A stretch of DNA of 64,000 nt from an uncultured virus (IMG/VR IMGVR_UViG_3300029258_002658). Taxonomy: Duplodnaviria; Heunggongvirae; Uroviricota; Caudoviricetes. Positions 4,793 to 64,000 of the stretch are shown piece after piece. Location of the stretch: IMG/VR virus record IMGVR_UViG_3300029258_002658; one strand, written 5' to 3'. The translations under genes were made by a program, and so were the position numbers. Every line of letters begins with the position of its first letter. The stretch's first letter is position 1. Under the pieces are notes generated by a model. It was not told where the DNA came from. It was given only the letters and a program-made list of their open reading frames with translations, and ran no database searches.

Positions 4793-6778
4793 CTACCCCA
4801 CCACCCGCAGCTGACCGTCTGCGTATTCCACCTGCTCGCCGCTATCGAGACGCACCCGAACGCCCTGGGGCGTCTCAGCCACCACTGTGCCTCGTTTCCC
4901 CTGAGCATCTTCAACAACAGCCTTACGGCGAGGCCGGAGGGGGAGCGCCCAACGGACCTTCCGCCCGGTCGGGCCTTTCACCTTCCGCCGCCGAGAGGGG
5001 GTGTCCCAACTACCACCTTTCGTCCTACCCTCTTTCTCGAACCCTGCGGCTCGAACACTCGCGGCCTCCTCCTCTTCGAGGGTGTAGGTGATTAGCTGGG
5101 TGTACCCGAGCCGCCGCGCCTCTGCCGCAGCTACCCCGTACAACTTCGATGCAGCGTTCCGCCGTAGCCAAGGATCGCCCCAGACACAGACCCGAGTGAC
5201 TTCCAGGGTACCGGGTCGGTCCTTCTGGAGAACACGGCTCACCGGACGACCTACGACCCCTACCCCTACACGGGTTCGACCCGACCATGCCTCGATACCG
5301 AACTTCCATCCCACGGGAGGGCCGTGGTGGGAGTGGTGCTTCTCGATGAGATCGAAGACTTGCTTCTGGGCACCTCTCTGTTTGGGGGTGACACGACCTC
5401 GCAAGGGCAAACGGATATCGCCCTCCGGCTTCACCTCCCGCACGTCCTCGGCACCACCCTTCAGTTCATTCACCAGGGCTTCCGGCGGGAATCCGTAGGT
5501 CGCCTCGAAGCCGTAGCTAAGGAGATGATCGCGCCAGTCAAGGCAGCAGTGTTGCACTGCCAGCGTATCAGGAAACCCTGACATCTCCCCCTGCTGGAGG
5601 ATATCGCAATACTCTACCCAGTCGAGGGTCTCACCGCAGTAGGGACATACCAGTTCGTCGCTGAGGAAGGCCATCAACGTTTTGTATTGGGTGGGAGTGA
5701 GGGACCACTTCCGGTGCCTCGCCTTCGACCCACCCACGGTCTCCCATCGAGTACGCACGGACTCCCAGTACCCTTTCCTCCCGATCCGGCTCTTCTCCTC
5801 CGCCGGGACGTGAGGTGCCCACAACTCGGACCGTTCCTTGCTTTCCTGTACATCGAAACCCTGGTAGTCGTCCCCTACGAACATCCACTTGTGATGCCAG
5901 ATCTCCGGGTCGGCGGGTGCGGCTCGTCGGGTCGCTGCCCCATTCGAGCGAACGGTGACTGAGTCTCCGACCGTAGGCTCATTGGCTTCATTGAAATCGG
6001 GAGAGTCGATGAAGGTAACGTCCCCGGTCGAGGATCGATACCGAACCATCTCCCAAGTGTGGTTCGGATAAATCTCCTCGGCTATGCGAACAGCACGGTC
6101 TAGTGCCCGTCGCGGTACGACGAGGTGGGCATAGTCCCGATGGACGTAGTGTCTACCTCCGATCACTTTCCCAACTCGACGCATTCCAGCCACGGGACCA
6201 CCTACTGTACCCACAGCCAGCGGCGTGGCTTGCTCTTCCAACCGTTTTCGTAGGGATTTGTCCCGAACTACGTAGAAGACCCCAGGTCCAGCTGGAACAA
6301 CCTCTTGGCCCAAGACCTCCTGGATCCAATCCGCGAGTTCACCCTGGGTGAAGTATTTCTGGAAGGTGTTCAGCGAAGTCCGAACCCCATCGCGGTAGGA
6401 CTCGCCTCCACCCTTGTTCTCCGACTCCAACCGGGCAGCTACTACCAGGGCCTTCTTTGCTGCCTTCCACGCAGTACGCAGTACCTTCGCCCTCTCCTTC
6501 GGATCTTCGATCACATTGACAACGTAGATCAATGCAACAACATCCGCAGGAGACCGGTCTCCCTCTGGTTCATAGTGAGGGTCATACCCACGGACAGAGA
6601 CGCCCTTCGCTCGGAGACGTTCTACATCTCCGCCCTTGCCGCATCCGTAGTCCAGAACTTCAGTACCATGGTCGATGACACCATCATCCAAGGCCATCCG
6701 AACGGGCCTAGACAACGACGACCGCTCGATAGCCGTGCGGTGCCGTTCGATGGAGGATCGACCAACAGTGAGGTACAT
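4793..6778 (-). CDS. multidomain DNA-modification protein: Dnd(phosphorothioation)-associated SAM methyltransferase-like domain, its companion domain, Zn-finger, and Mom/XF1762-like GNAT domain
   Basis: IERHRTAI..LSRPV..LDYGCGKGGDV..YVVNVIEDPKER..TFQKYFTQ (TIGR04096-like MTase); GK..YVH..FIDSPDF..PEIWHHK (companion domain); CPYC; HHSHHGPPVGWKFG..VGRPVSR..LEVTRVC..SKLYG..LGY..ITYTL..RAAGF (XF1762/Mom-like). Confidence 0.75.
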   Translation of the reverse strand: MYLTVGRSSIERHRTAIERSSLSRPVRMALDDGVIDHGTEVLDYGCGKGGDVERLRAKGVSVRGYDPHYEPEGDRSPADVVALIYVVNVIEDPKERAKVLRTAWKAAKKALVVAARLESENKGGGESYRDGVRTSLNTFQKYFTQGELADWIQEVLGQEVVPAGPGVFYVVRDKSLRKRLEEQATPLAVGTVGGPVAGMRRVGKVIGGRHYVHRDYAHLVVPRRALDRAVRIAEEIYPNHTWEMVRYRSSTGDVTFIDSPDFNEANEPTVGDSVTVRSNGAATRRAAPADPEIWHHKWMFVGDDYQGFDVQESKERSELWAPHVPAEEKSRIGRKGYWESVRTRWETVGGSKARHRKWSLTPTQYKTLMAFLSDELVCPYCGETLDWVEYCDILQQGEMSGFPDTLAVQHCCLDWRDHLLSYGFEATYGFPPEALVNELKGGAEDVREVKPEGDIRLPLRGRVTPKQRGAQKQVFDLIEKHHSHHGPPVGWKFGIEAWSGRTRVGVGVVGRPVSRVLQKDRPGTLEVTRVCVWGDPWLRRNAASKLYGVAAAEARRLGYTQLITYTLEEEEAASVRAAGFEKEGRTKGGSWDTPSRRRKVKGPTGRKVRWALPLRPRRKAVVEDAQGKRGTVVAETPQGVRVRLDSGEQVEYADGQLRVVG

Positions 6779-6781
6779 CAG

Positions 6782-7282: not shown

Positions 7283-7284
7283 AG

Positions 7285-7827: not shown

Positions 7828-7869
7828 TTCACTCCTTGGGTAAGAGATTGGTAGGGCCTTCAGTAAACC

Positions 7870-7962
7870 CGATCAAGTAACCATCAAACAAGAGGGGCGT
7901 CAGGATCGGCTCCCAACGCCCTTCTAGTGGCTCGGATGGTTAGTCGATCAAGTAACCGTCAA
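7870..7962. repeat. 18-bp direct repeat pair flanking a terminator
   Basis: CGATCAAGTAACCATCAA (7870-7887) and CGATCAAGTAACCGTCAA (7945-7962). Confidence 0.7.
7886..7925 (-). terminator. probable intrinsic terminator after nrdJ
   Basis: Minus strand AGAAGGGCGTTGGGA..TCCTGACGCCCCTCT hairpin followed by TGTTT. Confidence 0.55.
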
Positions 7963-17533: not shown

Positions 17534-17902
17534 ATGAGCGTCATGCCGCCAATGCCCGGCGAGACCGTGGGTGCCCGTCGCCGGACGCGCCCCGCAAAGG
17601 CGTACCAAGGTTCCACTCCGGGGTCGAGCCCCATCTGTCGTGTCCCCGAGGGCATGATGGGTTCGCGAGTGGGCGAAGACGGTGTCACCAAGGTCTACCA
17701 GGGGGGATCGTTCGTCTCCTGCAACCCGCGTAAGCAGCCCTCGTTGACCACTGGTCGCGTGGTGCTGGACCCGACTCTCGTGGCCGGTGGCCGCGTCGTC
17801 GGTCAGCAAGCGCAACAGGGTGGGGGGATGAACTTCGGTACCCTGTTGCTGGGTGGCCTCGTCGGCTACCTCGCCGCCGGAATGTTCAAGAAGGGGCGCT
17901 AG
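17534..17902 (+). CDS. small membrane protein (putative virion)
   Basis: AGGAG RBS; C-terminal TM FGTLLLGGLVGYLAAGMF followed by KKGR. Confidence 0.65.
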   Translation: MSVMPPMPGETVGARRRTRPAKAYQGSTPGSSPICRVPEGMMGSRVGEDGVTKVYQGGSFVSCNPRKQPSLTTGRVVLDPTLVAGGRVVGQQAQQGGGMNFGTLLLGGLVGYLAAGMFKKGR

Positions 17903-28450: not shown

Positions 28451-28568
28451 CCACACTCCAAGACCTCACGGACCTCCTGGAGGTCCAACTGGAAGTGGGT
28501 CCAGACCACCGCGCCCATCGGGAACACTTGGGTGGCCGAAGCCGTCCCGTAGACCGTAGAGCCTAACC

Positions 28569-49735: not shown

Positions 49736-51921
49736 GAACCGACCAATACACCTCGGGTACACCACTGGAACTCCACGACCAGATCAACCATAGCTTGAAG
49801 CTGGTCGCGGGGCCTCCGGTTACCGCGCCTCTTCCGGTGGGTCAGAAGCGTCCTGCTACGGCGGGGGTGCCTTGCCCACCTGCGTATCCCCAGGCGTACA
49901 ATCCGGGGACGCTCATCCCTCCGGTCAGCCTGCCGTACTACAATCCCCCAATGGGGTATGATAGCTGCACCATCCCAGCGTTCTGTCGTGCTTCCGATGA
50001 GCGGATGCCCGTGCCTCCGAAGCCGGGTTGGGCGCGTCATGGTCACGGCTGCACCTGCGGAGGCTCGACGGTCGGTGCGGACTGCGAGTGCGATGCTCAG
50101 GGCTACCTTGGGGAAAACTACGTGCCGGATCGGCCTCCGATCTTCTCGGGGACGTATCGCCCGCGTAGCGTCTACGGTCCGAAGGCGACCGAGGAGAGTC
50201 TGATCGAGGCAATGCTGGTGGATCCGAAGCGGGGCACGGAAGCCGTGATCCAGTACCTCCAGCAGAAGGGCGAGGTGCCGACCACGTCCGGTCCATGCTG
50301 GCCCCCGAAGCCGTGTCGCCCGATCCGTTCCTGTGGCCCGTTGCCGGGGTACAACAGCTGCGACCCCCGTTGGTTCCGACCCCACACCCAACCACGCCGT
50401 CTTTTCTGGCTCCTCTGGACGCCAGAAACGATGCCCAACTACAAGCTACGTCGGTGTATTGCTTCGAGGCTCAATGGGCTATTCGATGCGGCGACCGAGA
50501 ACCCGAATTGCTTTGCTCCAGGGTGGCGCTACAACAATGCCGTCCATGGGCCGAAGGTCTCGCAGTCCATGACTCAGAGCCAGATCGCTTCGCTAGCCGA
50601 AGTGATGGCGGTGGAGCAAGGGTTCCCAGGAGTTAAGTCGATCATCGAAGCCAACCGAGCGGCTCTGGAGCGCGAGTTGAAGGTGCGGGGGTTCGAGATT
50701 ATCACCTTCAAAGACGGTACCCAGGTTGTGGCTGGGCCGATTCTCGACGCTACGGGTTGCGGCCACCCCGGCGAAGTTGGCTTCCTCGGGAAGCTGTTCA
50801 AGAAGGCGAAGAAGGCCATCGGCGGAGCGTTGAAGGGCGTTGGTAATGCCGTGAAGAGTGCGGCCAAGTTCGTCCACAAGAAAGTCATCAAGCCAGTAGG
50901 CAAGTTCGTAGAGCGGAACGCCAAGGGTGCGGTGAAGAAGCTGAAGCAACTGGATAAGAAGCTGGGCATCACCAAGGGCCTGAAGAAGTTCGCCAAGGGC
51001 GCAGGGTCATTCCTCAAGGACAACTGGCCTGCTTTGGCGGGGATTGCTTTGACCGCTGTGACCGGCGGGGCTGCTGCTCCTCTCCTAGGTAGCTTGGGTG
51101 CCGCAGGTGGTTCGATCCTACCCATGCTATCCAAGATCGCTCCGAGTCTTCTTGGTGGGGGTGGTTCCGCCGAGGGGGGTGGTATAGCTGATATCATCGG
51201 AAAACTCGGCTCTTCTGTCCTAGGAGGCAAAGCAGACAACCTGGGCAGCATCGTCTCGAAGGTGTTAGGAGATTCTGGTTCTTCCGGGGGTCTGATGGAA
51301 GTTCTCGGGAAGATCCTCGGAGAAGGCGAAGGAGCCTTGGCGGAAGCGGGCGAAGAGATCGAGATCGTCGCCAAGAAAGAGAGCGCCGGGAAGGGCACGG
51401 AAGCCATCGCTGCGCTGTTCGGAGGCGACGGAGGTCTGCTCGACGCTTTGGGCGGAAACGCCAAGGGTATACCGGACATCCTCCAAGCCGCTGCGGCTCC
51501 TGTCGCAGAAAAGGCTGCTAAGACCGGTGAGTTCGATTTCGCTTCCCTGTTGGCCAATCTCCAGGAGATGGCCGGGGCGATGCGTCCCGAAGGGAACGAT
51601 ACCCTCAAGAAGATCTTAGCCTCGCTGGTGGGCGCACCAGCGGTTGCTAGGTCCGTGAAACGTGTTGGTGGGGTTCCGGTCCAGGCTGTTGTTGGGGCGA
51701 CTCAGCAGGCAGCACTGGTAAGCGGAATGTCCCCTGCCAATGCGCTCGCTGTGGGACGGTCCTACGGTGAGTATTGTTCGTCTACCGGCGCTTGCGCTCC
51801 GTTCAATCCAACCGTCGAGGGATCCCTTCGGGCCGATAGGATCTCATCGTCGGGGACTAGCGTAGGAACTCCGGTACTCGTCGCACTAGCAAAGGAGAGT
51901 TGTCGCCACCTCGCTGCGTAG
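49732..51921 (+). CDS. putative virion core/membrane-penetration protein
   Basis: Cys/Pro-rich N-part, long basic amphipathic helix FLGKLFKKAKKAIGG.., Gly/Ala-rich hydrophobic segment. Confidence 0.6.
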   Translation: MRTDQYTSGTPLELHDQINHSLKLVAGPPVTAPLPVGQKRPATAGVPCPPAYPQAYNPGTLIPPVSLPYYNPPMGYDSCTIPAFCRASDERMPVPPKPGWARHGHGCTCGGSTVGADCECDAQGYLGENYVPDRPPIFSGTYRPRSVYGPKATEESLIEAMLVDPKRGTEAVIQYLQQKGEVPTTSGPCWPPKPCRPIRSCGPLPGYNSCDPRWFRPHTQPRRLFWLLWTPETMPNYKLRRCIASRLNGLFDAATENPNCFAPGWRYNNAVHGPKVSQSMTQSQIASLAEVMAVEQGFPGVKSIIEANRAALERELKVRGFEIITFKDGTQVVAGPILDATGCGHPGEVGFLGKLFKKAKKAIGGALKGVGNAVKSAAKFVHKKVIKPVGKFVERNAKGAVKKLKQLDKKLGITKGLKKFAKGAGSFLKDNWPALAGIALTAVTGGAAAPLLGSLGAAGGSILPMLSKIAPSLLGGGGSAEGGGIADIIGKLGSSVLGGKADNLGSIVSKVLGDSGSSGGLMEVLGKILGEGEGALAEAGEEIEIVAKKESAGKGTEAIAALFGGDGGLLDALGGNAKGIPDILQAAAAPVAEKAAKTGEFDFASLLANLQEMAGAMRPEGNDTLKKILASLVGAPAVARSVKRVGGVPVQAVVGATQQAALVSGMSPANALAVGRSYGEYCSSTGACAPFNPTVEGSLRADRISSSGTSVGTPVLVALAKESCRHLAA

Positions 51922-51995: not shown

Positions 51996-53717
51996 ATGAA
52001 GCAGATCACCGTGGCTGGGGGCCAGCGGAGTACCTCCTCGAAGAAAGCCAAAGCCAAAAAGTCGAAGCCGAAGTCAACCTCCGGTTCTCGCCCCTCTCGC
52101 AAGAAGGGGTCGAGGCCTGGGGCGAAGAAGGCAACGACGGCTCGGACGACTTCGGGGGGATCCACAGGCTCCAAGCCGAAACCCAGAAGCAAGAAGGAGA
52201 CTACCGTGGCCGGAACAAAGTCCGTCAAGGTAATGGTCCAGCCGCCTCGGACCACGGGTGCCCGCCGCCCGGTCCAGGGGCGTCGTGGCGCAGGGCGTAA
52301 GCCCGCGACCACGGGCCAAGGCCCCATGCAGGGCCTCGCGCTGAAGCAGTTCTTCTCGAAGGAAGTCGTCCGCGCCGGTTCGCGGGGCGTCGGGATGCTC
52401 GCCGCCAACGCTGCCGGTGGGGTCCTGTCCGACTTCGTCGCGAAGGGACTCGACGCCGTGATGAAACCCGCCGCTGGCCAGAACATGGCGAAGCGGGCGA
52501 GCCTCACCAAGGTCATCACCTCACTGGCCGGGGCGTACCTCGCGTACCGCTTCCTGCCTGCCAACCGCATCCAGAAGCCCTTCCTGGCCGACATGAAGGA
52601 CGGGGCGGTTTCGATGTTCGGTCTCGCCGGACTGACGAACCTCCTCGGGTACTTCGGTGTCATCAAGCCGGAGCAGGGCGTCGGGCAGTACATCGCTGGC
52701 GACAAGTCCCTGATGGGGCTCCCGCAGGTGTTTGGTACTGCGGCCCCGGCAGCAGCCTTGGCTCAGGCGAACCAGCTGGCGAACCAGCAGGGAGACGGCG
52801 GTGCGCTGCCGGATGGCCTGCCCATGGAGGAAGGGGAAGACGTGCAAGGTATGCCGCCCTACTCCACGGACGAGACCGGCGCTGTCTTGAAGTCGTTGCA
52901 GGATGAGAAGGCTTCCCTGGACGCCGCGCTAGACGGGATCCAAGGCCCTTTTAACTACGAGCAGGAGCAGGTTTACGACTCCGCTGCCAAGCACTTGGCG
53001 TCGATGAGCGTCCCGCTAGAGATGGTGCAGTACCACCTCGACAACGGCGACCTCTATCGTGCCATCGCAGCCCTGTCGGAAGCCAAGACCTACGGCGTCG
53101 TCGCCCGCGCCCTGATTGCAGGGTTGGGTGCAGGGGCTCCTGCGGCGATGGAACCGGCGATGCAGCCCGCGATGCAGCCCGCGATGCAACCGGCGATGCA
53201 ACCGGCGATGCAGGCACCTGTTCCGGTGTCTGAGGAGATCGCGGTGGAGGATGCTCGGACGGGCGAGACGGTCATGCTACCCGCACCTTCCGTCGAGGAA
53301 GTGACCGTCGAAACCGCTCAGGGCCGTGCCCTCGACCTCGATACCCTGTATCCGTGGGCGCACTGGATCGCCAGCAACAACAAGGGGTGGTCGCCCTCCG
53401 AAGTCACCACGGCCTTCCTGCTGAACTACATCAGCAACAACGGCCACACCTGGGGCTACGGTGGCGATCAGGTGACTGCCTGGGGTGCCCAGGTGCCGCC
53501 GAACATCTCGGCCCCGTCCGCGTCCGCTGTCTCCGGTGCCAGCATGTACAACGGGAACAACTTCCTGGTGTCTGGCGCTCCGGTCGGCACCTCGCAGGGT
53601 GAGGCTCCGTCCATCGGGCTCGTCTGCTCGGGGTACGTCCACACCGCTCCTGCCGAGGCCAACGCCCTCCAGGCCACGGTCAGCGGGCTCTTCTCCACCT
53701 ACTTCGGCGGCTACTAG
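51996..53717 (+). CDS. putative major virion protein with Lys/Arg-rich N-terminus and hydrophobic helices
   Basis: GGAGG RBS; strongly C/G-ending codons; K/R/S/T-rich first ~100 aa; three hydrophobic helices. Confidence 0.65.
   Translation: MKQITVAGGQRSTSSKKAKAKKSKPKSTSGSRPSRKKGSRPGAKKATTARTTSGGSTGSKPKPRSKKETTVAGTKSVKVMVQPPRTTGARRPVQGRRGAGRKPATTGQGPMQGLALKQFFSKEVVRAGSRGVGMLAANAAGGVLSDFVAKGLDAVMKPAAGQNMAKRASLTKVITSLAGAYLAYRFLPANRIQKPFLADMKDGAVSMFGLAGLTNLLGYFGVIKPEQGVGQYIAGDKSLMGLPQVFGTAAPAAALAQANQLANQQGDGGALPDGLPMEEGEDVQGMPPYSTDETGAVLKSLQDEKASLDAALDGIQGPFNYEQEQVYDSAAKHLASMSVPLEMVQYHLDNGDLYRAIAALSEAKTYGVVARALIAGLGAGAPAAMEPAMQPAMQPAMQPAMQPAMQAPVPVSEEIAVEDARTGETVMLPAPSVEEVTVETAQGRALDLDTLYPWAHWIASNNKGWSPSEVTTAFLLNYISNNGHTWGYGGDQVTAWGAQVPPNISAPSASAVSGASMYNGNNFLVSGAPVGTSQGEAPSIGLVCSGYVHTAPAEANALQATVSGLFSTYFGGY
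53145..53213 (+). repeat. 12-bp coding tandem repeat (AMQP x ~5-6)
   Basis: GCGATGCARCCS-type units; AMEPAMQPAMQPAMQPAMQPAMQ. Confidence 0.9.
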
Positions 53718-53790: not shown

Positions 53791-54630
53791 ATGCAGGGAC
53801 TCTTCCCCATGAACGTCGGGCAGGCCGCTCCCATGGCTGCCGTTCCCCCTCCGCCGATGGCCGCTCCGCAGGTGTACGCGGGCAACCCGAACTGCCCGGT
53901 CCCGGCCATCCAGATGTTCCAGGCCCCTCCGTGCCCGGATCCCAACAACTCGCTCCAGATCACGAAGCGCGTCTTCGAGGTCGTCAACGGGGCGTTCTTC
54001 GTGGCCGACACGGGCACGGAGATCGTCTCGGACTTCGCCGCCGATCTGGTCGCAGGTCCCGATGCCGGGGGTGTCCCCGGTGCTGGATCCTTCACCCTCG
54101 TCACGGACGCGCAGACCTTCGCGGTCGTGCGTGACGTGACCATCGCCTTCGACGCCTACGGCGCGAATGCGTTCGAGGCCGTGGAGATCACGGCGGCGCT
54201 GGAGTCCTACGCTACGTCCTTCGGGGCGCTGCTGTCGGGCGCGGTGACCATCGAGAACCAGCCCTTCCCCACCGTGATTCCCATCGCGAGCGCGATCAAG
54301 AACACGGGCGGGATCGACTCCTACTGGACCGTCGATGCGGGTGACACCTCGCTGCCCGCCGGCCACGCCAGCATCTACTACGTCGCTCCGCGCATGGAGC
54401 CGACGCACAGCCACGCCCCGGCTCCCATCGAGATCTACCTGCCCGAGAGCAGCCAGTACCCGGTGACCATCGCGGTCCCGAGTCGTGCCTCGAACGGCGG
54501 GGCGTGGAACTTCGACACGGGCGCTGGTGCCGCCGACCAGACCTTCATCTGGACGGGCGTGGTCACCATCCTCCTGGAGCAGAACACCACGCTCGGGAAC
54601 GTCCCCGGCGCGGCGTACATGGGCCGCTAG
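53791..54630 (+). CDS. candidate major capsid protein (beta-rich, jelly-roll-like)
   Basis: AGGAG RBS, extreme C/G3 codon bias, beta-strand pattern, strong terminator right after. Fold is not demonstrable by eye. Confidence 0.45.
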   Translation: MQGLFPMNVGQAAPMAAVPPPPMAAPQVYAGNPNCPVPAIQMFQAPPCPDPNNSLQITKRVFEVVNGAFFVADTGTEIVSDFAADLVAGPDAGGVPGAGSFTLVTDAQTFAVVRDVTIAFDAYGANAFEAVEITAALESYATSFGALLSGAVTIENQPFPTVIPIASAIKNTGGIDSYWTVDAGDTSLPAGHASIYYVAPRMEPTHSHAPAPIEIYLPESSQYPVTIAVPSRASNGGAWNFDTGAGAADQTFIWTGVVTILLEQNTTLGNVPGAAYMGR

Positions 54631-54769: not shown

Positions 54770-55774
54770 ATGCCCAGAAACCCGAACTCGCCGCCCAGTC
54801 CAGCAGCCCCTCCGCCTTCCAACCAAGCAGGCACAAGCCTGGATCCGACGCGGGTGGAGTACCCGAAGATCATTCCGATTTTCCGGGAGCCTGACAACCC
54901 TGCCGACCTCATCGTTCCGAAAGCGACACCAATCCCGGACCCGTGTGAGATCGAGATCCCCTTCCAGATTCCCCGAGGCCAACACGGGCCATTTATCTGG
55001 CAGGGCATTTACCTCATGTTGGCGGTCTTGGGTACCGAAGATGAAGCCCCGGACTACCCCTTGATCTGGGCTGACCCCGACCACGGTGTCTTCAGCGACG
55101 AAGTGGGGACGCTTTCCGGACCCCCACCGTTCATTGGGGCAGAAGAGGGCTACAACTTCACCTGCGTCTTCGATTTCGCCGGGGACCATATCTTCCGGAC
55201 CCATGTCATCCAGCGCAACGACTGGAGGGTGATGTCGGTCCATCAGGGCCTCCCCGCAGGACAGGCGGGTAAGCTGACCATCATCCGGAACAAGTGTGAC
55301 CGATTCGCTCCGGATACCACGGTCTACTTGTTCGCTGGACTCTTCGGGCGTATGGTGTACACCTTCCCACCACCCTACCCTGTGGACTCGACTACGGAAC
55401 CCATCCGTATTGTCTCGGAGATCACCGGGCCTCTGGTGTGTCCCGGTGGCACCGGCCCAGGTGTTTTCGGGCAGCCCAACATCTCGAACATCCCACTACG
55501 TCGGCGTCACCCAAGTATCGTAGACACGCTGCTGTACTCGGGGCAGCAGCACCTGTACACCCGCATCGGATGGCAGGGAGGCATTCGCTTGAACGACGAC
55601 TACATCCCGGCACGACTCTTCCACCGGTCCCGTGGAGGGCGACTGGCAGCCCCAATGCTGGTGGTCGGGGGTACCAACGTTGAAGTTGAGTTGCTCCAAC
55701 CACTGGTCCTCGATGTTGAACAGGGTGACGCCATCGGTGCCTTCGAGATCGAAGGCGGATCGTACGGCCTCTAG
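54770..55774 (+). CDS. beta-rich putative capsid/minor structural protein
   Basis: 334 aa, appears to be two beta-sandwich halves. Confidence 0.5.
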   Translation: MPRNPNSPPSPAAPPPSNQAGTSLDPTRVEYPKIIPIFREPDNPADLIVPKATPIPDPCEIEIPFQIPRGQHGPFIWQGIYLMLAVLGTEDEAPDYPLIWADPDHGVFSDEVGTLSGPPPFIGAEEGYNFTCVFDFAGDHIFRTHVIQRNDWRVMSVHQGLPAGQAGKLTIIRNKCDRFAPDTTVYLFAGLFGRMVYTFPPPYPVDSTTEPIRIVSEITGPLVCPGGTGPGVFGQPNISNIPLRRRHPSIVDTLLYSGQQHLYTRIGWQGGIRLNDDYIPARLFHRSRGGRLAAPMLVVGGTNVEVELLQPLVLDVEQGDAIGAFEIEGGSYGL

Positions 55775-55782
55775 GAGCGACC

Positions 55783-56376
55783 ATGTCCTACAGCGTCTAC
55801 TCCATCTTCGAGATCCAGCATCGCGGCCTCTTCGACCGCTGCACCATCCAACGGACACCGGCTCCGGGGACGAAGCTGTATCCACCCCTCGGCCCCTACC
55901 CTCAGAGGCTACGCGGGGGGCAGGATCCGTCGCCAGCAGGTATCCGGGATGTCTACTATTCCGACTCGTTCCGCCGTCGTGTCCGGGTAGCTCCTGGGAC
56001 ACTAGATACGGTCAACCTGGGCTTCGCACAGAAGCCGGGGAACCAGATCTCCATCGGAACGCACATCATCGACGTGGACGGCAACTACCTTGATTGGCAG
56101 GCTGTCATCAACCGCCTCGCAGGGGTCGTCTTCTTCTTGATGCTGGATAACGTCCCGATCTTCTCGATCCAGGGCTGTCCAGGTATGCCGATGCCCGGTG
56201 AGTACTACTACGTAGACCTCGATGGCGGGGAACAACTGGGTGTACTCATCGACAACACAGATCCGAACTCCACCCTCCTGGCAACTGATACGGTGGTGGT
56301 TCAGATGCTTCTCCGCGCTGATCCAGTATTCCGCATGGAAGTGGATCGCAAGGACACGCCCAACGCGCCTGTCTAA
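55783..56376 (+). CDS. beta-rich putative structural protein
   Basis: AGGAG RBS, 197 aa. Confidence 0.55.
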   Translation: MSYSVYSIFEIQHRGLFDRCTIQRTPAPGTKLYPPLGPYPQRLRGGQDPSPAGIRDVYYSDSFRRRVRVAPGTLDTVNLGFAQKPGNQISIGTHIIDVDGNYLDWQAVINRLAGVVFFLMLDNVPIFSIQGCPGMPMPGEYYYVDLDGGEQLGVLIDNTDPNSTLLATDTVVVQMLLRADPVFRMEVDRKDTPNAPV

Positions 56377-56392
56377 GAAGGAGGTCCCTGCG

Positions 56393-57034
56393 GTGAGAAC
56401 ACGGACAATCTCTATTCCGCTCGACGCGGAAGACGAAGCCCCAATAGGAGGAGCCCCTCTTGTTGAGGAGCCCGAGCCTCCGGAGGTTTCCCCACCTCCG
56501 TGGGGGGTACAACGCACGGTAACGATGCAACTGGGGGAGGAGGTGGAAGAAGCCCCGGAGGTCAAGTCCTCGCCTGCAACGCCTCCGCCTTCCAGTCCTG
56601 TTCCAGTTTCTCAACCTAAGTCAGCGCCCCCTTCCCCATCGTCAGTCCGGCCTGTGTTTTCGGTGGGCGGGGCCAAGTCCCCTTCTCCAGAATCAGCACC
56701 GAACCCTGCTTTGGTCGTGGCTACCCAGGCCATGCAAAGCGTGACGATGCTCGAACAACGGATCGGGACTATCAATACCCAGGTTCTGAAGATCCAGCAG
56801 CAGCAGATGAGCCTGTCGGCGGATCTGAACCGAATCCAGCAACAACTGGAATTGGGGAACGCCCAAGCCGCCGTGTTAGGGTGGGCGCAGAAGATGCTGG
56901 AAACGCACTACTCGGCGCTGCGGGGGTACGAGTTCTCACCCACTGTCGTTGACCAGATCCAGGAAAACTTGTCGAACGCACAGCAGCGGTTGCAAGCAGT
57001 TCGAACGGCCTTGCAACAGCAGAATACCGGGTGA
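56393..57034 (+). CDS. Pro-rich plus coiled-coil protein
   Basis: AAGGAGG RBS before GTG 56393; Gln-rich heptads. Confidence 0.6.
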   Translation: MRTRTISIPLDAEDEAPIGGAPLVEEPEPPEVSPPPWGVQRTVTMQLGEEVEEAPEVKSSPATPPPSSPVPVSQPKSAPPSPSSVRPVFSVGGAKSPSPESAPNPALVVATQAMQSVTMLEQRIGTINTQVLKIQQQQMSLSADLNRIQQQLELGNAQAAVLGWAQKMLETHYSALRGYEFSPTVVDQIQENLSNAQQRLQAVRTALQQQNTG

Positions 57035-57128
57035 CCCTCGGCGTCTTGTGGAGGGTGAGGCGCAAGGTTACGATACTCGGACCAACTCGTAGATTCAGTC
57101 CTACGGCCCTTACGCCTCGGAGAAAAAC

Positions 57129-58895
57129 ATGGACTTCAGAACAAACGGATCATTGGCTGCAAAGGCTCCCACGGTCGGCCAGGGGATCGTGTCCCAGAAC
57201 CCACCGTCGATGGTCCAACCGACCACTACGACGGATTTCGCAGCAACGGCTATCGGCCAAGCTGAGCAGAGCCGCCTGACGCAGGCCTTGGATCAAGCCT
57301 TGTCTGCGTTGAACCGTACTCCTGGCACAATCACGCTCCTGAAGCACAAGCATCCGGCTCCGAGTCGATTGATCCACGGTGGAGGGATCGGAAAGTTCAC
57401 CGGTAAGGTGCCGGATACAGGACGTTACCGGAATGAGTGGAGCTACATGTTGGTGCCCGCGAACACGCAGGTACTAGCTTTCCGGGGGCGGAACTACACC
57501 GACTCGTATCGGTGGTTCGGGCCAGGGAACCACAACCTCCACGCTGCGGGGGTTCGCTGGCATGACCGAGGTGCCCCTGAGTCACTTATCACATTGCCTG
57601 TGGTCCCCAACGTGGACTCGATCATCCAGCAGACCCTGAACTTGGCGACTCCGACCTACGGTCGTCTCGTCAACCAGAGCAACTTCCAGAGCCACCCCAT
57701 CGTCCAGAAGGTTAAGCAGTACCTCTACAAGTGGGCAGGGATGTTGGCTGGGAAGCCGCAGCAAGAGGCGTACCAGAAATATACGACGTTCCTCCAAAAC
57801 CTCGCTGCCAAGGTGCGGGCCGCTGGGCCGGTGCAGCCGACTCAACAGTGCCGCTCTGGGTTCAGGGTGTGGACTCCCTCGGCAGGGCAAGGCCCGCAGA
57901 ACGGTCCTTGGAACAACTATCCGCCCTCTCAGTACGAGGTCTACCCTCTACCGGGTACGGCGTCCTACTGCTACCAGATCAAGGCCGCGCAGAAGCCTCA
58001 AGGCTTCGTATGCCCGACCGGGGTATACAAGGAGTACTCCAGTGGCGCGAAGGTCTGCATTCCGAAGGATCTTATGGGGTGCGAGGCCCGAGGTGGACAG
58101 CTTCGTATGACGGGGAGACCGGACCGGAAGCGGGGATGGCCGTATACGGTCTACTGCTACTACCCCGGACGTTCTGCGATCATTTCTCGTCACCGCTGGA
58201 CCGCTGGTGGCCCTGTCGTCGTGGACGACTTCCCGTTGAAGCAGACGACGGGCGGCTACGTCATCGATGAGGATGCCCTCGGTGTGGAGATCGATGAGAC
58301 GGTGGGGCAGTTCGGGGGTTTCGGAGGTGTTCAGGCCCCGCACTCTCTCGAACAGCTGAAGGCCATGCACGATGCGCGGATGGGAGGCGCTCCGCCTACT
58401 TCGACACCCATGCCCACGGACCTGCCCGCCCCAGCGATGACCTCTCCGATGACACCACCCGCTCCGGAGGACACGATCCCTTCGCTCCCGGAGGAGATTC
58501 CCCCGTCTCCCGATTCGGTACCTCTCCCAGGAGAACTGACCGATCAGGGTGAAGGGGGTATGTACTTCCCTTCCGCGCAGGATCGGCAGGCGATGGATGT
58601 CCTGGCCGACCTCCGCGACGGGATGCAGAGCCTTCGCCGGGACTCGCGCCAATTCGGGACCACTTTCAAGAAAGAGTTCGAGGAACTGGACGGATTCACC
58701 CCCGAACTCAGTACTAAGCTGGGGAACCTTCGGCAGGCTGCACGGGGCATCCAGTCCATCTCCAACCAATTCCTTACAGGAGAGTTCGAGCCAGTTAGCG
58801 TCGATGACGCTTCCCTGGCCGCTGCTCTCCTGACCTCGGGGGCACCACTGAAGTACGGTGGTGGTAGTCCCCTGCGAGCAGTTCGCCGCCCGTAG
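57129..58895 (+). CDS. modular protein with beta/gamma-crystallin-like and Cys-rich segments
   Basis: NEWSYMLVPANTQVLAFRGRNY..FGPG..L..WHDR resembles crystallin Greek-key motifs. Confidence 0.5.
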   Translation: MDFRTNGSLAAKAPTVGQGIVSQNPPSMVQPTTTTDFAATAIGQAEQSRLTQALDQALSALNRTPGTITLLKHKHPAPSRLIHGGGIGKFTGKVPDTGRYRNEWSYMLVPANTQVLAFRGRNYTDSYRWFGPGNHNLHAAGVRWHDRGAPESLITLPVVPNVDSIIQQTLNLATPTYGRLVNQSNFQSHPIVQKVKQYLYKWAGMLAGKPQQEAYQKYTTFLQNLAAKVRAAGPVQPTQQCRSGFRVWTPSAGQGPQNGPWNNYPPSQYEVYPLPGTASYCYQIKAAQKPQGFVCPTGVYKEYSSGAKVCIPKDLMGCEARGGQLRMTGRPDRKRGWPYTVYCYYPGRSAIISRHRWTAGGPVVVDDFPLKQTTGGYVIDEDALGVEIDETVGQFGGFGGVQAPHSLEQLKAMHDARMGGAPPTSTPMPTDLPAPAMTSPMTPPAPEDTIPSLPEEIPPSPDSVPLPGELTDQGEGGMYFPSAQDRQAMDVLADLRDGMQSLRRDSRQFGTTFKKEFEELDGFTPELSTKLGNLRQAARGIQSISNQFLTGEFEPVSVDDASLAAALLTSGAPLKYGGGSPLRAVRRP

Positions 58896-58939
58896 TTGAA
58901 CCGGCGTCCGTTAGGGCGTCACAGACCCAAAACGGAACT

Positions 58940-59908
58940 ATGAGTCAACCAGGATCAGGACGGCCCGTCTTCGGGCAGCAGCACATGGGAACCACGGGCG
59001 GGCAGCAGTTCAGTGCCCGTGTTCAACACCGTGGCCGTCGCCGCGACCCTTCAGGTGGGGGTCTGGTGATGGGTCCAGGGGGTATCACACAGCAAGGAAT
59101 GGCTCCGCCACAACAGGCGATGCCGCAGATGCCACAGATGCCACAGCAGATGCCGCGTATGGCCGCACCGATGCCGCAGGTGCCCATGCCTGCCCCAGCA
59201 CCCGCACCACCGCAACAGCAGATGGTCCAGGTGCAGTACCCTAATGGGCAGGTAGGAGTGATGCCGGTAGCCCAATACCAGCAGATGATGGCAGCTGCCC
59301 AGCAGGCGCAGCAAGCGCAGGCCGCTGCGGCCCAGGCTCAGGCCGCTGCCCAAGCCCAGGCTGCACAACAGGCTCCGGCGGTAGCGGCTCCCCCGATGCC
59401 TCAGCCGATGCCCCAGCAGGCTCCGCCCCAGCAGGCTCCGCCGCAGTACGCTCCGCAGCAGCAGGCTCAACAACAGCCAATGCCGGTGCCCCAGGGTGTT
59501 GCAGGGGCACCGCAGGGCGAAGAGGCCCAGCCCGATGCTACGGGTGGTTTGCCTCCGCAACTGGACCCCAACGTCCAGATGCTGACGATGCCACCGCCAG
59601 TAGGAGGCCGTACCAACCACGAGCCTCCGAAGCCCGTGTTCGGACACCCCGGATCCATGAAGACCATTGGTCAGGTGGATGATTCGGGTGCTATCGGCAC
59701 CACGGGCGTCATCACTGACATGGGCGTCCAGGCCCAACCCCGGTACGGATCGCAACACGACCATCCCAATGCGTTCCAAGCGCAGGGGACCGACCAACGC
59801 CAACTCGTAGGCGGTGTTCCCTTCGGGAAGCACTACGAGGGCCAACACGCGGGGCAGGCCCCTACCCCGAACAGTGTGGACGGACGGTTCACCGGCTTCG
59901 GAATGTAG
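58940..59908 (+). CDS. Gln/Pro/Ala/Met-rich low-complexity protein
   Basis: Poly-Q/PQ/AQ tracts. Confidence 0.65.
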   Translation: MSQPGSGRPVFGQQHMGTTGGQQFSARVQHRGRRRDPSGGGLVMGPGGITQQGMAPPQQAMPQMPQMPQQMPRMAAPMPQVPMPAPAPAPPQQQMVQVQYPNGQVGVMPVAQYQQMMAAAQQAQQAQAAAAQAQAAAQAQAAQQAPAVAAPPMPQPMPQQAPPQQAPPQYAPQQQAQQQPMPVPQGVAGAPQGEEAQPDATGGLPPQLDPNVQMLTMPPPVGGRTNHEPPKPVFGHPGSMKTIGQVDDSGAIGTTGVITDMGVQAQPRYGSQHDHPNAFQAQGTDQRQLVGGVPFGKHYEGQHAGQAPTPNSVDGRFTGFGM

Positions 59909-59925
59909 CCTCGTAGGGAGACACC

Positions 59926-61800
59926 ATGACAGACGGTGAAGGCAGGTTCCCCTGGCAAGACCAGGATGCGCCAGCCCGTGGCGTTCGACGGGGAAGTGGA
60001 ACCAGACCAAACGCAGGGAAAGCTGCTGCACAACCCCAGAGGCCGCGTCTCTCAACTGGAGGGGCGCAGCCTGGGTTGTTTGAACCCAGAAACGAAGACT
60101 TCTATGGGGTCGGTTCCGATGACGAAGAGGATCCCCTCGGACCCCCACTCGAACCTCGAACCGCCCACCCTCGAACGACAGAGGAGGAGGAGGAGAGCGG
60201 GGAAGTTTCGGGAGTTGAAGTAGAGGTCGAGGATAGTGAAGAACCGGACGCGGACGAAGATGACGAGGGCTCTGTAGAGGATGGCGACGATGGTGATACC
60301 GACGACTCAGGCGGGGACGATGATGTTGAGTGGAACGAAGGCGATCCCTTTGGGGGTGCGGATCGAGATGACGGAGATGATGGGGAGGAAGAAGACGGCG
60401 ACGATGGTGAAGCTGATTCAAGCGGTGGTGGCGATGAGGACCAGGAAGAAGGATCGTCCGGAGAGTCTGCAACGACTGCTTCGGCGGATGCAGGAGATTC
60501 TCCAGAACCTGAGGAACCCGAACCACCTGACGGCATCTTCCACGGAGAGGCAGAGCCTGAAGATGTGAGGAGGGCGAAGCAGGAGCGTCAATCCATCGCA
60601 TCGCCGGAGGTGGCGACCGTCGCCCGGCGACTTGGTCCAGGCGTCGGTATCAGTCAACCTGCTCGCAAGGCCGTCCCCCGACCCCAGGCCCCTCCTGTTG
60701 GGGTTAGTCGGATCTCGGAACGACCTGTGGACGACCTGCCAGTTGGGCTCGGAAGGCTAACCACTGAATTGCGGAAGCTGGGTATTACAAATCCTGGTAT
60801 CGATGCCATGATCTCGTTGGCACAGGAGAACCCTGAGGCCAAGGCGGCTCTAACGCGGCTTGCAGGCAGGGCTGCACTCGTCAACGAGGTCTCGGGTAAG
60901 GCTGGCGTCGATCTTATGCAGGAGTACGGGGCTCTTCCGCGAAACGGCAACAGGCCGAATGTGCCCTACCTCTTCAACCTTCCACCGGGGCCTGCGTTGG
61001 AAGAGCGGATGATCGTAGCGGTGGCCTCCCATGCGTTGTTCGATTCACCTTTCGATTTGAGCAAGCCCGAGCAGCGTGGTGCGGATTGGGGTTCGCCCCA
61101 ACCATTGGGTAGGCTGACCTCAGTGCAGTTGTGGTACTTCAACGCTGAGGATGGGCGTACCAGGACCAATACTACTGGGCTCGATCTCGTTAATCGGTTG
61201 CTGGGTCGAGACCCCAACAAAAGGACTGTGGGGCGCGGCCTTCGCGAGGGCGACTACATCGTAGTGAGCCTGGAAGTAGTGGTTCCAGGGTCGGCGCAGA
61301 AGCACCGGGTGTTCGTGCTGACCTCTGTGAACCGTGCGGGTGGCGTCTCGGTTCCCTCGAAGGCCGACGAGACGCGGTACCGAATGGCTATGGGTATCGT
61401 AGATGGGTTCGCGGTCCAAGATCTCGACCGAGCCGGGGCTCCCCCAAATCGAATCTGGGATGACCTCGCGTACTCGCCGTATCTCCTTACCCGTAACATG
61501 ATCCGAGGGCGTCGTCGCGGTTCGCCTATGCCGGACACGGTGTGTCGCCCCAGCCAAGCCGAGATCTACTACCTGGAGCCTGCTTGGATGGCGCTCCGGA
61601 AGGGTTTGCTCCCTGTTGAGGTAGCCACGTTCGCGGAAGCGGATCGGGAAGGGGCTGCCGAGGCGAAGGTGATCCAGAGCCTGCGTAAGGAGGCCGAAGG
61701 TCGGGCACGACAGCACCGTAGCTTCCAAGGAGTACAACCTCTGGATTCGCAGGAGGTTAGCGGTGATAGCCCTCTGGGAGCCCGTCGTATCTGGTACTAG
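59926..61800 (+). CDS. protein with long Asp/Glu-rich disordered region and globular C-terminus
   Basis: ~130-aa D/E tract; GGGAG RBS. Confidence 0.7.
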   Translation: MTDGEGRFPWQDQDAPARGVRRGSGTRPNAGKAAAQPQRPRLSTGGAQPGLFEPRNEDFYGVGSDDEEDPLGPPLEPRTAHPRTTEEEEESGEVSGVEVEVEDSEEPDADEDDEGSVEDGDDGDTDDSGGDDDVEWNEGDPFGGADRDDGDDGEEEDGDDGEADSSGGGDEDQEEGSSGESATTASADAGDSPEPEEPEPPDGIFHGEAEPEDVRRAKQERQSIASPEVATVARRLGPGVGISQPARKAVPRPQAPPVGVSRISERPVDDLPVGLGRLTTELRKLGITNPGIDAMISLAQENPEAKAALTRLAGRAALVNEVSGKAGVDLMQEYGALPRNGNRPNVPYLFNLPPGPALEERMIVAVASHALFDSPFDLSKPEQRGADWGSPQPLGRLTSVQLWYFNAEDGRTRTNTTGLDLVNRLLGRDPNKRTVGRGLREGDYIVVSLEVVVPGSAQKHRVFVLTSVNRAGGVSVPSKADETRYRMAMGIVDGFAVQDLDRAGAPPNRIWDDLAYSPYLLTRNMIRGRRRGSPMPDTVCRPSQAEIYYLEPAWMALRKGLLPVEVATFAEADREGAAEAKVIQSLRKEAEGRARQHRSFQGVQPLDSQEVSGDSPLGARRIWY

Positions 61801-62161: not shown

Positions 62162-62216
62162 TTCGCAGGGACGGTAATCTAGGGCACCAGAACGTCCTTC
62201 TACCAGGAGATCTGCG

Positions 62217-64000
62217 ATGAAGATTTGGACCCACTACATCCCAGGGCGGCACGACCGCAGTACGGCAGCTGCGTTGGCTCGTGAGGTCACGGCGGTCAAG
62301 AGCGCCCAGAAGCTGCCGGACTATCCTCATTTCTACGTCCGGGCGGTGGTGTCCGATGCGGGGGGTCCGGACGGGCGGTTCTTGGTGTGGGCCAAGTCGC
62401 CTATGACCGACACACAGATCCGGGGGGCGTGGAAGAAGAGCAGTCCCGTGGTAGCTACGCGGACGAAGCTGGCTTCGGTGCCCGCGACGGTCAAAGGCAA
62501 CAAGCCCAAGAAGAAGGCGAAGCCGAAGAATAGTGGGGGCTCCAAGCCCAAAGCTAAGCCCAAGCCCAAAACCAGAGCCAAAACCACCGGAGCAGCGAAG
62601 CCGAAGACCGCGAAGGAGAAACTTGCGGACCTTTGGGCCGGAGCCGAATGTACCCTCGATGGGGTTCCGGCGAAGATCCAGGGGCGCAAGCAGGGCTTCG
62701 CTCATGTCTCGCAGCTGGAGGATCCAGGGGAGTCGGTGGAGTTCTCTTGGGAAGCGGTCAATCGTGTGATGACCGAAGGTGACGAGGCTTTCTCCTCGGG
62801 CAAGACGAAGCCGAAGGCTAAGGCTAAAGCCAGGAAGAAGAAGAAGTCCACTGCCAAGAAGACTGCCAGCGCAAAGCCCAGGACGAAGAAGAAGGCGAAG
62901 GCGAAGAAGGCCTCGAAGGCTACAGGAACGGTTTCCACCAAGAAGGTGAAGCGCAAGAAGGGCAGACGGCCTGGAGCCACGAAGAAGGGCAAGAAGACGG
63001 TGTCCGGAGGGACGCTCGCCTCCCGCCTCAACTGGCTAGACCGAGCCGAGATCCAGGAAATCCTGGAGCGGTGGGGTTTCGCAGTCTACGACTCGGAGTC
63101 CACTGACGACCTCCGCGAAGCGTTGCAGGAGAACATCGAAGACGGGACCATCCCTGAGGAGGAGATCGATACGGTCAGCGGTCCCATGGGTAAGAAGAAG
63201 AAGGCGAAGTCGAAGAAGGCGAAGGGTAAGAAAACGGTAAGCGGAAAGTCTTTCAAAGAGGGGGATCGAGTAAGGGTGGTGAGTCCAGCGGCGATGATCC
63301 TGAGCGGGATCCCTGAAGGGGCGGAGGGCATCGTACGGGCCATCGCAGGTGCCAGAGGCCGGTCGATCTACCCAGACCCGGCTAAGCGACTCGTTTATGT
63401 GGAATGGGACCAGTACCCCGGCAAGGCTATTGGCCGTGATGAGGTCGAGAAGATCGACAATGGCTCGGTAGGCCGGAGGATACCTCGCGTTAGCGTCGAT
63501 GTATTCGAGGACGGGCAGCCTGTACGTGGATCCAGGGACTTCACCCAGGCCTTCGATACCGTGGGGGCACTGCCTCCTGGGGGATGGAACGAAGGCTGTG
63601 GATACGAGACGCTGGCCGGTTGGCTTCACGCCAGCAACGACCGGTACTATGAGGCGCGTCGGCACATCGCTGATCTCGCTATGGATCGCGCCGAGGAATT
63701 GGCTGCCATCCAATACCCTCTCTCCGCCAAGGCCTCAATCAAGAAGGCTTCGCTTGCTCGTCTCCAACCTTTCATCACCGAGGGCAAGCACCGCATGAAG
63801 CGGACAGGTGAGGACGGGAAAGCGGAAGGGGAATGGTACGCCGTCGTGCGGACCATCCAGCAGAACATCCTCAGCAGTGAGATCGTCAAAGCCGGAGGCC
63901 GTACACCTCAGGAAGCGGACGTGCGGTGCGCTGGTCTCGACTTGGAGGGCGTGTCCCAGGCTCCATGTCCGGCCTACACCCCAGCTACGGCTGCGGGTCC
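62217..64000 (+). CDS. large modular protein with histone-H1-like Lys-rich linkers (runs off window)
   Basis: Not in the ORF track. Manual translation from ATG 62217 (AGGAG RBS) is open to the window end: MKIWTHYIPG..KPKKKAKPK..KKTVSGGTLASRLNW..IDTVSGPMGKKKK..KKTVSGKSFKEGDRVRV.. Confidence 0.8.
   Translation, partial: MKIWTHYIPGRHDRSTAAALAREVTAVKSAQKLPDYPHFYVRAVVSDAGGPDGRFLVWAKSPMTDTQIRGAWKKSSPVVATRTKLASVPATVKGNKPKKKAKPKNSGGSKPKAKPKPKTRAKTTGAAKPKTAKEKLADLWAGAECTLDGVPAKIQGRKQGFAHVSQLEDPGESVEFSWEAVNRVMTEGDEAFSSGKTKPKAKAKARKKKKSTAKKTASAKPRTKKKAKAKKASKATGTVSTKKVKRKKGRRPGATKKGKKTVSGGTLASRLNWLDRAEIQEILERWGFAVYDSESTDDLREALQENIEDGTIPEEEIDTVSGPMGKKKKAKSKKAKGKKTVSGKSFKEGDRVRVVSPAAMILSGIPEGAEGIVRAIAGARGRSIYPDPAKRLVYVEWDQYPGKAIGRDEVEKIDNGSVGRRIPRVSVDVFEDGQPVRGSRDFTQAFDTVGALPPGGWNEGCGYETLAGWLHASNDRYYEARRHIADLAMDRAEELAAIQYPLSAKASIKKASLARLQPFITEGKHRMKRTGEDGKAEGEWYAVVRTIQQNILSSEIVKAGGRTPQEADVRCAGLDLEGVSQAPCPAYTPATAAG

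Follow-up and report, generated by a model that had tools for sequence, protein, structure and literature searches.

A short T-V-G-type tag and a candidate transglutaminase-fold maturation protease in the virion gene block of a large uncultured virus

A 64,000-nucleotide stretch of DNA from an uncultured virus (IMG/VR record IMGVR_UViG_3300029258_002658), hereafter the window, ends in a block of 12 plus-strand open reading frames (ORFs, each named by its first coordinate) that begins at position 46826, runs to the window end, and has almost no family matches in Pfam or PHROGs. A short protein motif, T-V-G or a close variant such as T-V-S-G, recurs in the products of this block (Table 1). The second block gene, ORF 48206, encodes a protein with two transglutaminase-like domains, one of which carries an intact Cys-His-Asp triad. 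An earlier note on this DNA had proposed a genome-wide polyprotein-processing system, with such motifs at domain junctions and a dedicated cysteine protease. Here the motif proves to be a tag of the virion block throughout a virus lineage; that 48206 directs particle maturation by cutting at this tag is the favored reading, with a probability of roughly 0.6.

Table 1. Genes and sites considered, with the virion block first and candidates outside it last (aa, amino acids)
Feature	Position	Strand	Tags and remarks
First block gene, coiled-coil/Q-rich (46826)	46826..48199	+	SVGG 47366-47377; GVSG 47726-47737
Candidate maturation protease, 509 aa (48206)	48206..49735	+	Two transglutaminase-like domains
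Tail sites of the candidate protease	49655..49711	+	TAAG aa 484-487, right after the fold; SSVAG aa 498-502
729-aa protein (49732)	49732..51921	+	LVAG 49801; STVG; VVAG 50725; EVG 50773
Core-like protein (51996)	51996..53717	+	TVAG 52008 and 52203 on either side of a basic N-terminal arm (aa 9-73, net +20)
Single-jelly-roll capsid protein candidate (53791)	53791..54630	+	NVGQ 53812-53823 in N-terminal arm
Two conserved beta-rich-looking block genes (54770, 55783)	54770..56376	+	No N-terminal VG in the window's 54770
Block genes 56222, 57129, 58940, 59926	56222..61800	+	56222: SVGG 56660; 57129: PTVG 57168, ETVG 58296; 58940: GVAG 59495, LVGG 59804; 59926: EVSG three times, TVG
Modular protein, cut by window end (62217)	62217..64000	+	TVKG 62487; TVSG 62997, 63171, 63234; SVG 63465; TVG 63558
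Candidate cargo polyprotein (4793)	4793..6778	-	Tags 6761-6769, 6185-6217, 5729-5740; TIGR04096, NF045478
Candidate cargo polyproteins (27404, 28569)	27404..29939	+	TTAG 27710; EVSG 27908; TVSG 28169; SVG 29013
Small protein, weak candidate (17534)	17534..17902	+	ETVG 17561; LVAG; VVGQ; C-terminal hydrophobic anchor
PTVG in acidic ORF 30006	30282..30293	-	1 observed, 0.28 expected

The tag and its distribution

Motif counts were compared with 1000 shuffles of each protein, with genes grouped by Pfam or PHROGs match and by position. The pattern, [TS]V[SAK]?G, had been picked by the earlier reader from these same window ORFs, and every motif quoted then is present in its ORF and place (for example, TVSG at 62997, 63171, and 63234; AVGTVGGPVAG at 6185-6217; and TVGG at 5729-5740). 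The 12 block ORFs contain 18 copies against 5.3 expected (0/1000 shuffles), whereas 15 window enzymes contain 7 against 4.8 (206/1000) and are not enriched. Six spike-like ORFs contain 2 against 2.6, and 20 other window ORFs contain 9 against 5.6, which is not significant (108/1000). The comparison of structural ORFs with enzymes and shuffles thus yields an excess in the virion block and none in the enzymes; to call the system genome-wide overstated a signal concentrated in that block.

TVSG itself occurs seven times in the window against 0.46 expected, ranking second among the 403 tetrapeptides seen at least three times; it narrowly misses the 20^4 Bonferroni threshold. The window alone is suggestive. 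Because the pattern had been chosen on window ORFs, it was tested in other blocks. A capsid-protein search identified 13 loci: the window; L002, a 95% relative; the divergent L003-L011 (36-51%, some near-duplicates); and two distant ones. Block gene order is kept across these loci. The pre-set pattern is enriched in all five related virion blocks tested, with ratios of 2.5-5.4 and P from 3e-3 to 2e-9 (observed against expected: L007, 14 and 5.2; L003, 13 and 5.2; L008, 12 and 2.9; L011, 23 and 4.8; L010, 16 and 2.9). (L003/L007 and L010/L011 are related pairs.) No enrichment appears in 13 non-block genes of the related loci (5 against 3.3) or in 240 bacterial ORFs (43 against 55).

Pooled over L007, L008, and L011, TVG occurs 31 times against 4.9 expected, in 17 of 31 proteins, and is the top tripeptide after EEE and RRR. 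Related patterns lack this excess: T[LIM]G is not enriched in any of the five blocks, nor the reversed motif in four of the five; window shuffles gave no excess of [ILM]G or [ILM][SA]G; and G-[MLF]-G (5 against 7.3) and [YF]-G (34 against 31.6) are not enriched in the window block. Bare VG, at 115 against 132, was rejected as the signal. Also rejected was an artefact of GC content or composition, by shuffles, shadow frames (TVSG 0.06 versus 0.35 per 1000 aa), and bacterial ORFs. A DNA-level repeat or recombination scar fared no better, as no repeat family covers the sites; because the codons of the motif are diverse, it is a protein motif. The tag itself is solid: it is real and lineage-wide.

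The forms enriched among 43 block proteins are TVG, TTG, VSG, VAG, VGG, TVSG, TVGG, TVAG, TTGG, TTSG, and TAAG, the last with 8 occurrences against 1.2 in the pooled blocks. TV dipeptides in these proteins have Gly at +1 or +2 in 57 of 109 cases, versus 6 of 32 in the window enzymes. The variants align on T-[V/T] and then a small residue, usually Gly. What follows the tag is variable (G, Q, A, R, S, or K), a pattern that suits a cut site better than a Gln/Lys cross-link code.

As for position, at least two divergent orthologues carry the site at the corresponding place for 10 of the 24 strict sites of the window (2.1 expected), and the edge of a basic tract is no more than 8 aa away for 9 of 26 sites (2.85 expected). 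Tags are often within about 20 residues of the N-terminus (4793, 51996, 53791, 57129, and genes of L011). The proposed location at domain junctions holds in part: tags frequently border arms or basic tracts, but several are inside folded domains. Some copies are plainly duplicated: KKTVSG occurs twice in 62217, and RRRTVGK twice in L011.

The strongest positional case is one that the earlier reader missed, NVGQ in ORF 53791. The model of this protein is one jelly roll behind a low-confidence 50-residue arm, and the top structural match is to the capsid protein of Sulfolobus polyhedral virus 1 (SPV1; Foldseek E 2.4e-3, Z 6.4, root-mean-square deviation 3.3, 122 aligned). VG is present in this poorly alignable arm in 22 of 23 homologues, representing all seven identity clusters (shuffle mean 7.0, maximum 15, in 2000 shuffles); a twenty-fourth, truncated homologue was left out. 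The lone homologue without an arm VG has TTGG twice. An Atlas search with 53791 gave no match, and a Foldseek search of PDB gave none at E 0.001 for the 53791 or 48206 models.

Other block proteins carry tags before short or distinctive elements. In 51996, a C-terminal ATVSG (53676-53687) precedes the nine-residue tail LFSTYFGGY; the Gly (Gly564) is invariant in seven of seven sequences, preceded by TVS, TVG, TIS, or SIR. In L011, the gene at 7115-9769 has five TVG/SVSG tags inside a 370-residue, histone H1-like Lys/Arg arm. In 49732, EVG directly precedes a Lys-rich helix, amphipathic-looking to judge from its sequence, and a Gly/Leu-rich membrane-type region; orthologues have TTGG, TTG, VVG, or TDG before the same helix, so that a tag variant is found there in all lineages. 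LVAG and VVAG of 49732 are matched in two of three orthologues, and both sites of 46826 in all three divergent orthologues. Toward the window end, the sites at 56660, 57168, 59495, and 59804 are matched in two of two orthologues, but the site at 58296 in neither; the sites of 59926 do not recur (each in 0-1 of 2). The window 54770 lacks the N-terminal VG that its L003, L007, and L011 orthologues carry.

The best polyprotein candidate of the window is 62217, in which six tags, with 0.63 expected, separate small domains and Lys-rich tracts. Its relative P0039 (90% identical, 763 aa) keeps five of these tags, has TGGG at the sixth, and adds an ETVSG before a basic tail. Family scans gave no confident family for the segments of 62217.

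ORF 48206 and its relatives

Both domains of 48206 have the transglutaminase core fold (Z 9-12), with the triad in the second only. The N-terminal domain (approximately aa 56-214) matches Pfam PF01841 (E 1.8e-6) and is without a catalytic Cys at the matching place; the C-terminal domain (approximately aa 304-474) contains Cys394, His427, and Asp443. Thirteen relatives were found among 1.84 billion representatives, and the window protein was aligned with 12 of them, one N-terminal fragment being left out. No change was seen in Asp-Cys394-Asp-Asp, His427, or Asp443 across the 13 aligned sequences. Most homologues keep the dead N-terminal domain; the L011 protein (329 aa) has the active domain only. 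The gene occupies the same block in L002, L007, L008, L010, and L011.

The 48206 model has a predicted local distance difference test score (pLDDT) of 80 and a predicted template modelling score (pTM) of 0.85. Structural matches to the first domain include BDI_1141 (Z 12.0), PNGase and PeiP (both 10.2), and LapG (9.6). The second, active domain matches factor XIII (Z 9.6) and reaches template modelling scores of 0.74-0.80 in the Atlas, where its nearest clusters are mostly viral transglutaminase-like proteins. None of the 13 family sequences matched Peptidase_C93 (PF06035) at E 0.01, and a search of phage records with 48206 gave no result. Beyond the folds, the tail of 48206 (aa 486-509) is disordered (pLDDT below 50), and A-A-G or V-A-G follows the fold in most homologues; the tail sites are possibly sites of self-trimming. 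At the other end, TVG is present within the first 20 residues of 4 of the 12 relatives.

A lineage-wide tag beside a conserved enzyme with an intact triad thus partly sustains the proposal of a tag and a dedicated cysteine protease, whose pairing is probable; the notion of genome-wide cargo polyproteins is weaker.

LapG, a proven endopeptidase with a transglutaminase-like fold and a C-H-D triad, cuts between the alanines of [T/A/P]A↓AG (PMC3032545, PMC13090378, and 10.1101/198937). Its short site of small residues resembles TVAG and TVSG. The LapG alignment spans the 48206 model's N-terminal domain. LapG is a single-domain periplasmic enzyme that acts on adhesins and is regulated by LapD, whereas 48206, a viral enzyme, joins a dead to a live domain in tandem and has many candidate substrates.

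A second comparison is with a bacterial virus. BFVD contains a 304-aa match to 48206, the accession prefix of which we take to be that of SSIP-1. The SSIP-1 protein gp34 (L014:21296-22210) is 304 aa long, is labelled 'structural protein' in its record, and is homologous to the active domain of 48206 (E 2e-7 among 57 proteins; profile probability 92%); to our knowledge it has no known activity. The two catalytic domains share D-C-D, H-V-Y, and D, and in both genomes the enzyme gene follows a Q-rich, coiled-coil-like gene and precedes structural genes. Unlike 48206, gp34 is a single domain with a C-terminal hydrophobic anchor, and the SSIP-1 genome is 44 kb. TVG is not enriched in SSIP-1 (2 against 6.5 expected). 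Several SSIP-1 structural genes have GMG or GLG (G[ML]G, 9 against 5.1, P 0.075). Profile comparison detected no similarity of 53791 or 54770 to SSIP-1 gp45-47. SSIP-1, a bacterial virus that has been isolated, is tailless, contains a membrane, and has two single-jelly-roll capsid proteins (PMC6356626, PMC5332951).

Maturation and the competing readings

The favored model is as follows. The tag, T-V-G or (T)-V-[S/A/G]-G with the variants T-T-G and T-T-[S/G]-G, would be the recognition site of the morphogenesis block, located in the arms of capsid proteins, where basic core tracts end, and ahead of both the amphipathic helix and the short terminal peptides. The 48206 protein, with its one dead and one live domain, would be packaged into the particle and would cut the tags after assembly. 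Propeptides would be lost, the basic DNA-binding arms would be broken into fragments, the amphipathic helix would become exposed, and the enzyme would shorten its own tail. Cleavage may take place at T-V↓G or T-V↓[SA]G, a register suggested by the LapG cut at TA↓AG. The earlier note had placed the cut after Gly, which is possibly wrong because that register was borrowed from adenain, I7, and S273R, enzymes with another catalytic order, and because the variants align better on T-[V/T]; by analogy with LapG, a cut before the small residue is an equal alternative.

The adenovirus enzyme AVP (adenain) acts on capsid and core precursors, including pIIIa, pVI, pVII, pVIII, mu, and pTP, at the sites (M/I/L)XGG↓X and (M/I/L)XGX↓G (PMC4246237). 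The resemblance is in organization: one virus-encoded Cys enzyme; short Gly-containing sites in two forms in many capsid and core proteins, the cutting here being predicted; basic core proteins among the likely substrates; and a site followed by a short, conserved peptide at the C-terminus, like pVIc. The differences are in the sites (T-V-G and V-[SA]-G here), in the virus (prokaryotic, with a single jelly roll), and in the enzyme: AVP has His54, Glu71, and Cys122, whereas 48206 has the order Cys394, His427, Asp443 on a transglutaminase fold. Membership of 48206 in the Ulp1-like adenain/I7/S273R group was rejected on this ground, the order differing from His-Glu/Asp-Cys.

Poxvirus I7 cuts at AG↓X, and pS273R of African swine fever virus (ASFV) cuts at GG↓X. 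As in those viruses, Gly-motif processing of core proteins is proposed here, and ASFV provides a model for the release of several proteins from one precursor. In reviews, the maturation proteases of jelly-roll DNA viruses, including I7 and pS273R, are described as Ulp1-like enzymes that were acquired in eukaryotic hosts and are absent from tectiviruses (PMC4405056, PMC6260650); the fold of 48206 is different, so the present system would be convergent. The prohead proteases of tailed phages offer another parallel. T4 gp21 and SPN3US gp245 (AXE sites) each cut many internal and capsid proteins at a motif of three residues and remove their own C-terminal propeptides (PMC7411985), a prokaryotic precedent for what is proposed of 48206. 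Unlike it, they are serine proteases of HK97-fold phages with an acidic P1 site.

The word 'protease' is absent from the main texts of PMC5894146, a survey of prokaryotic double-jelly-roll viruses, and of PMC5332951 and PMC6356626, on membrane-containing viruses. A literature search found no paper describing this system, most subscription papers and supplements being outside its reach. If the model is correct, motif-directed maturation would have arisen a second, independent time, in tailless bacterial viruses and with a protease of the transglutaminase fold. The tag could predict virion proteins and their mature ends in a virus group almost devoid of family matches, and the new short-site specificity of such a protease may make it useful as a reagent.

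Several observations weigh against cutting by 48206. The transglutaminase fold also includes cross-linkers, deamidases, and acetyltransferases. The widened pattern with TT and TA variants is enriched in window enzymes as well (11 against 4.6, P 0.007); these variants are leads only, because the pattern that includes them is less specific. Positional conservation is not particular to the tag: the control L[SAG]?G recurs in 13 of 41 cases (3.6 expected), so the orthologue-position test discriminates only moderately. The basic-edge signal comes mostly from this virus (7/11), with few cases in relatives (2/15). The hydrophobicity of tag flanks does not fall significantly below that of randomly chosen places in those proteins (154/2000 and 364/2000), and in a 90-97% identical relative tag residues changed in 4 of 100 cases versus 49 of 577 for flanks, which is not significant (P 0.08). 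Some tags are inside folds: TVG269 of 4793; ETVG366-369 of the protease, which is part of its conserved core; and STVSG of NrdJ. (The conservation of this last site, a caveat raised from the start, was confirmed: x[IV][SA]G is present in all 63 cellular NrdJ sequences in which the site was found, among 80 examined.) The capsid assignment of 53791 rests on a modest Z of 6.4. And scans of 46-53 window ORFs revealed neither a terminase nor a portal nor a packaging ATPase; for the ATPase of the FtsK-HerA type, they covered 53 ORFs with Pfam and 46 with PHROGs, about half of the genome lying outside the window.

The tag might instead serve for docking or packaging, as a short beta-strand to which scaffold, capsid, or the dead domain of 48206 binds to bring proteins into the particle, and be left uncut or be cut by something else. 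This is unlikely but deserves attention, given the nearness of many tags to the N-terminus, like the capsid-targeting sequences of T4 (PMC7411985), and the retention of the dead domain in most homologues. Five copies in one basic arm (L011:7115) and sites before terminal peptides of 6-9 residues fit cutting better, and the same block contains a live triad; docking and cutting are also compatible. An improbable reading makes 48206 a cross-linker or deamidase that acts on Gln or Lys beside V-G and stabilizes the particle. VGQ is indeed found in 18 of the 22 capsid arms with VG; TVGQ, TVGK, and TVGR are all enriched; and factor XIII and the transglutaminases TG2 and TG3 match the active domain (Z 9.2-9.6). 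However, the next residue in most tags is G, A, S, or R rather than Q or K, no Q/K preference is seen for the V[SA]G form, and the D-C-D-D context of the active site presumably resembles that of the microbial protease branch.

It is equally hard to believe that the tag is a structural or evolutionary by-product, a favored turn in Gly/Thr-rich linkers spread by local duplication and unrelated to 48206. TxG turns are common, and the duplicated copies in 62217 and L011, the enrichment of the widened pattern in enzymes, and the partial positional conservation of controls would all accord with such an origin; the presence of the tag in 17 of 31 mostly unrelated proteins, its synonymous codons, and the lack of enrichment of T[LIM]G and the reversed motif, and of the tag in bacterial ORFs and SSIP-1, argue otherwise. 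Finally, a host protease, or another viral protease encoded outside the window, might cut the tags. The enzyme-substrate pairing is after all deduced, and at least 46 kb of the genome is elsewhere, but 48206 is syntenic with tagged genes in five related loci and has the tag in its own tail, and several homologues have TVG near the N-terminus; this explanation is very improbable.

Extension of processing by 48206 to cargo encoded outside the block (4793, 27404, and 28569) is a further, less likely step, and we regard it as tentative. Boundaries set from 119 homologues divide 4793 into a dnd-type methyltransferase (MTase) domain (approximately aa 8-180), domain 2 (approximately 202-340), an unknown domain, and a Mom-like XF1762 domain (472-612). 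Its tags at aa 4-6, 188-198, and 347-350 lie just outside the MTase domain and domain 2; TVG269 (5966-5974) lies inside the latter. V[SAG]?G is upstream of the MTase in 1 of 73 homologues checked. The first modules of 27404 and 28569 match nearly whole small phage proteins (phrog_9437, 2-88 of 98; phrog_20259, 19-138 of 140), and both stop just before a tag. Over these three proteins the strict motif is within 20 aa of four of seven domain ends (five with TTAG), versus none of seven in other proteins. The tagged ends fit the cargo claim, but neither side of the Mom-like domain is tagged, the MTase domain and domain 2 share one chain in cellular homologues, and the non-block genes as a group are not enriched. 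It is doubtful that newly captured domains, such as the methyltransferase-like domain and the small phage proteins, gain flanking T-V-G tags, are packaged in ASFV style with basic DNA-binding linkers, and are released as separate effectors at maturation, under a virion-wide code that evolved apart from adenain/I7/S273R and is read in a LapG-like register. The single strict site of 17534 compares with 0.52 expected, and PTVG of ORF 30006 is indistinguishable from chance.

ORF 4793 is a fusion of a phosphorothioation-associated MTase-like domain (TIGR04096, with the cellular middle part missing) and the Mom-like XF1762 domain, and so contains two DNA-modification-type domains within one viral gene. 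The TVSG-containing ORF 6782 and 4793 are in frame, with TAG-CTG between them (6778-6784, minus strand); read-through would turn the N-terminal TVG of 4793 into an internal junction. TAG is the commonest stop (32/52), and five close gene pairs are in frame. As a general source of larger polyproteins, stop-codon read-through was not favored: the 46826-48206 gap is 11 nucleotides and is out of frame in L002.

The wider genome and other repeated elements

The other genes of the window belong to the repertoire of a large virus: RNase H, NrdJ, PolA-like, primase, helicase, a PD-(D/E)XK nuclease, PyrE/F, and IscS, along with spike-like genes having LamG, BclA_C, and LVIVD domains. The host-like metabolic genes encode an IscS-type desulfurase and an RNA-recognition motif (RRM) protein (22192-23424) and PyrF and PyrE (37611-39651). 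No tRNA was seen in the window. The same proteins are found on contigs of 110-122 kb, which places at least 46 kb, about half of the genome, outside the window. NrdJ relatives are bacterial (48-55% identical), many of them from Acidobacteriota, which does not name a host. Searches of viral contigs with 48206 and with queries labelled A1, A2, and A5 gave no result, nor did a search of genome contigs with A2.

With a modest fold score for 53791, and no terminase, portal, or packaging ATPase among the scanned ORFs, we infer that the window is part of a large, probably tailless, membrane-containing bacterial virus with single-jelly-roll capsid proteins. Helvetiavirae are the single vertical jelly-roll comparison group (PMC10848233). 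Set against their two single-jelly-roll major capsid proteins, the window offers one modelled protein, 53791, with one jelly roll. Relatives of the capsid gene are also found on very long contigs (L011, 618,894 bp; the longest for P0021, 329,333 bp), which are either jumbo genomes or proviruses. The helicase at L008:1-2589 is about 300 residues longer, and its insert reads like an intein with a homing endonuclease.

A dispersed A/T-rich element with the core AARSTGMAAAASTTTT is present at 4755, 12617, 23484, 31307, 43035, and 61800 (nine strand matches at six places, against 0.01 expected), mostly at gene-block boundaries. Three copies are palindromic and hairpin-like, CGAAACTG...CAGTTTCG. Among eight loci checked, it occurs in L002 only. 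It is possibly an operator, promoter, or terminator. ORF 23588 (23588-26233) has a Pro/Thr/Asp-rich region with 75-nucleotide tandem repeats, and four copies of a 25-nucleotide sequence lie at 40519-40690, in an apparently non-coding stretch. AAACARGAGG occurs ten times against 0.19 expected (7886, 10710, 16184, 21493, 22877, 26058, 34355, 39731, 40320, and 49215): four copies are intergenic, just upstream of leftward genes, and six are within ORFs. This sequence is possibly a protein-binding or nicking site.

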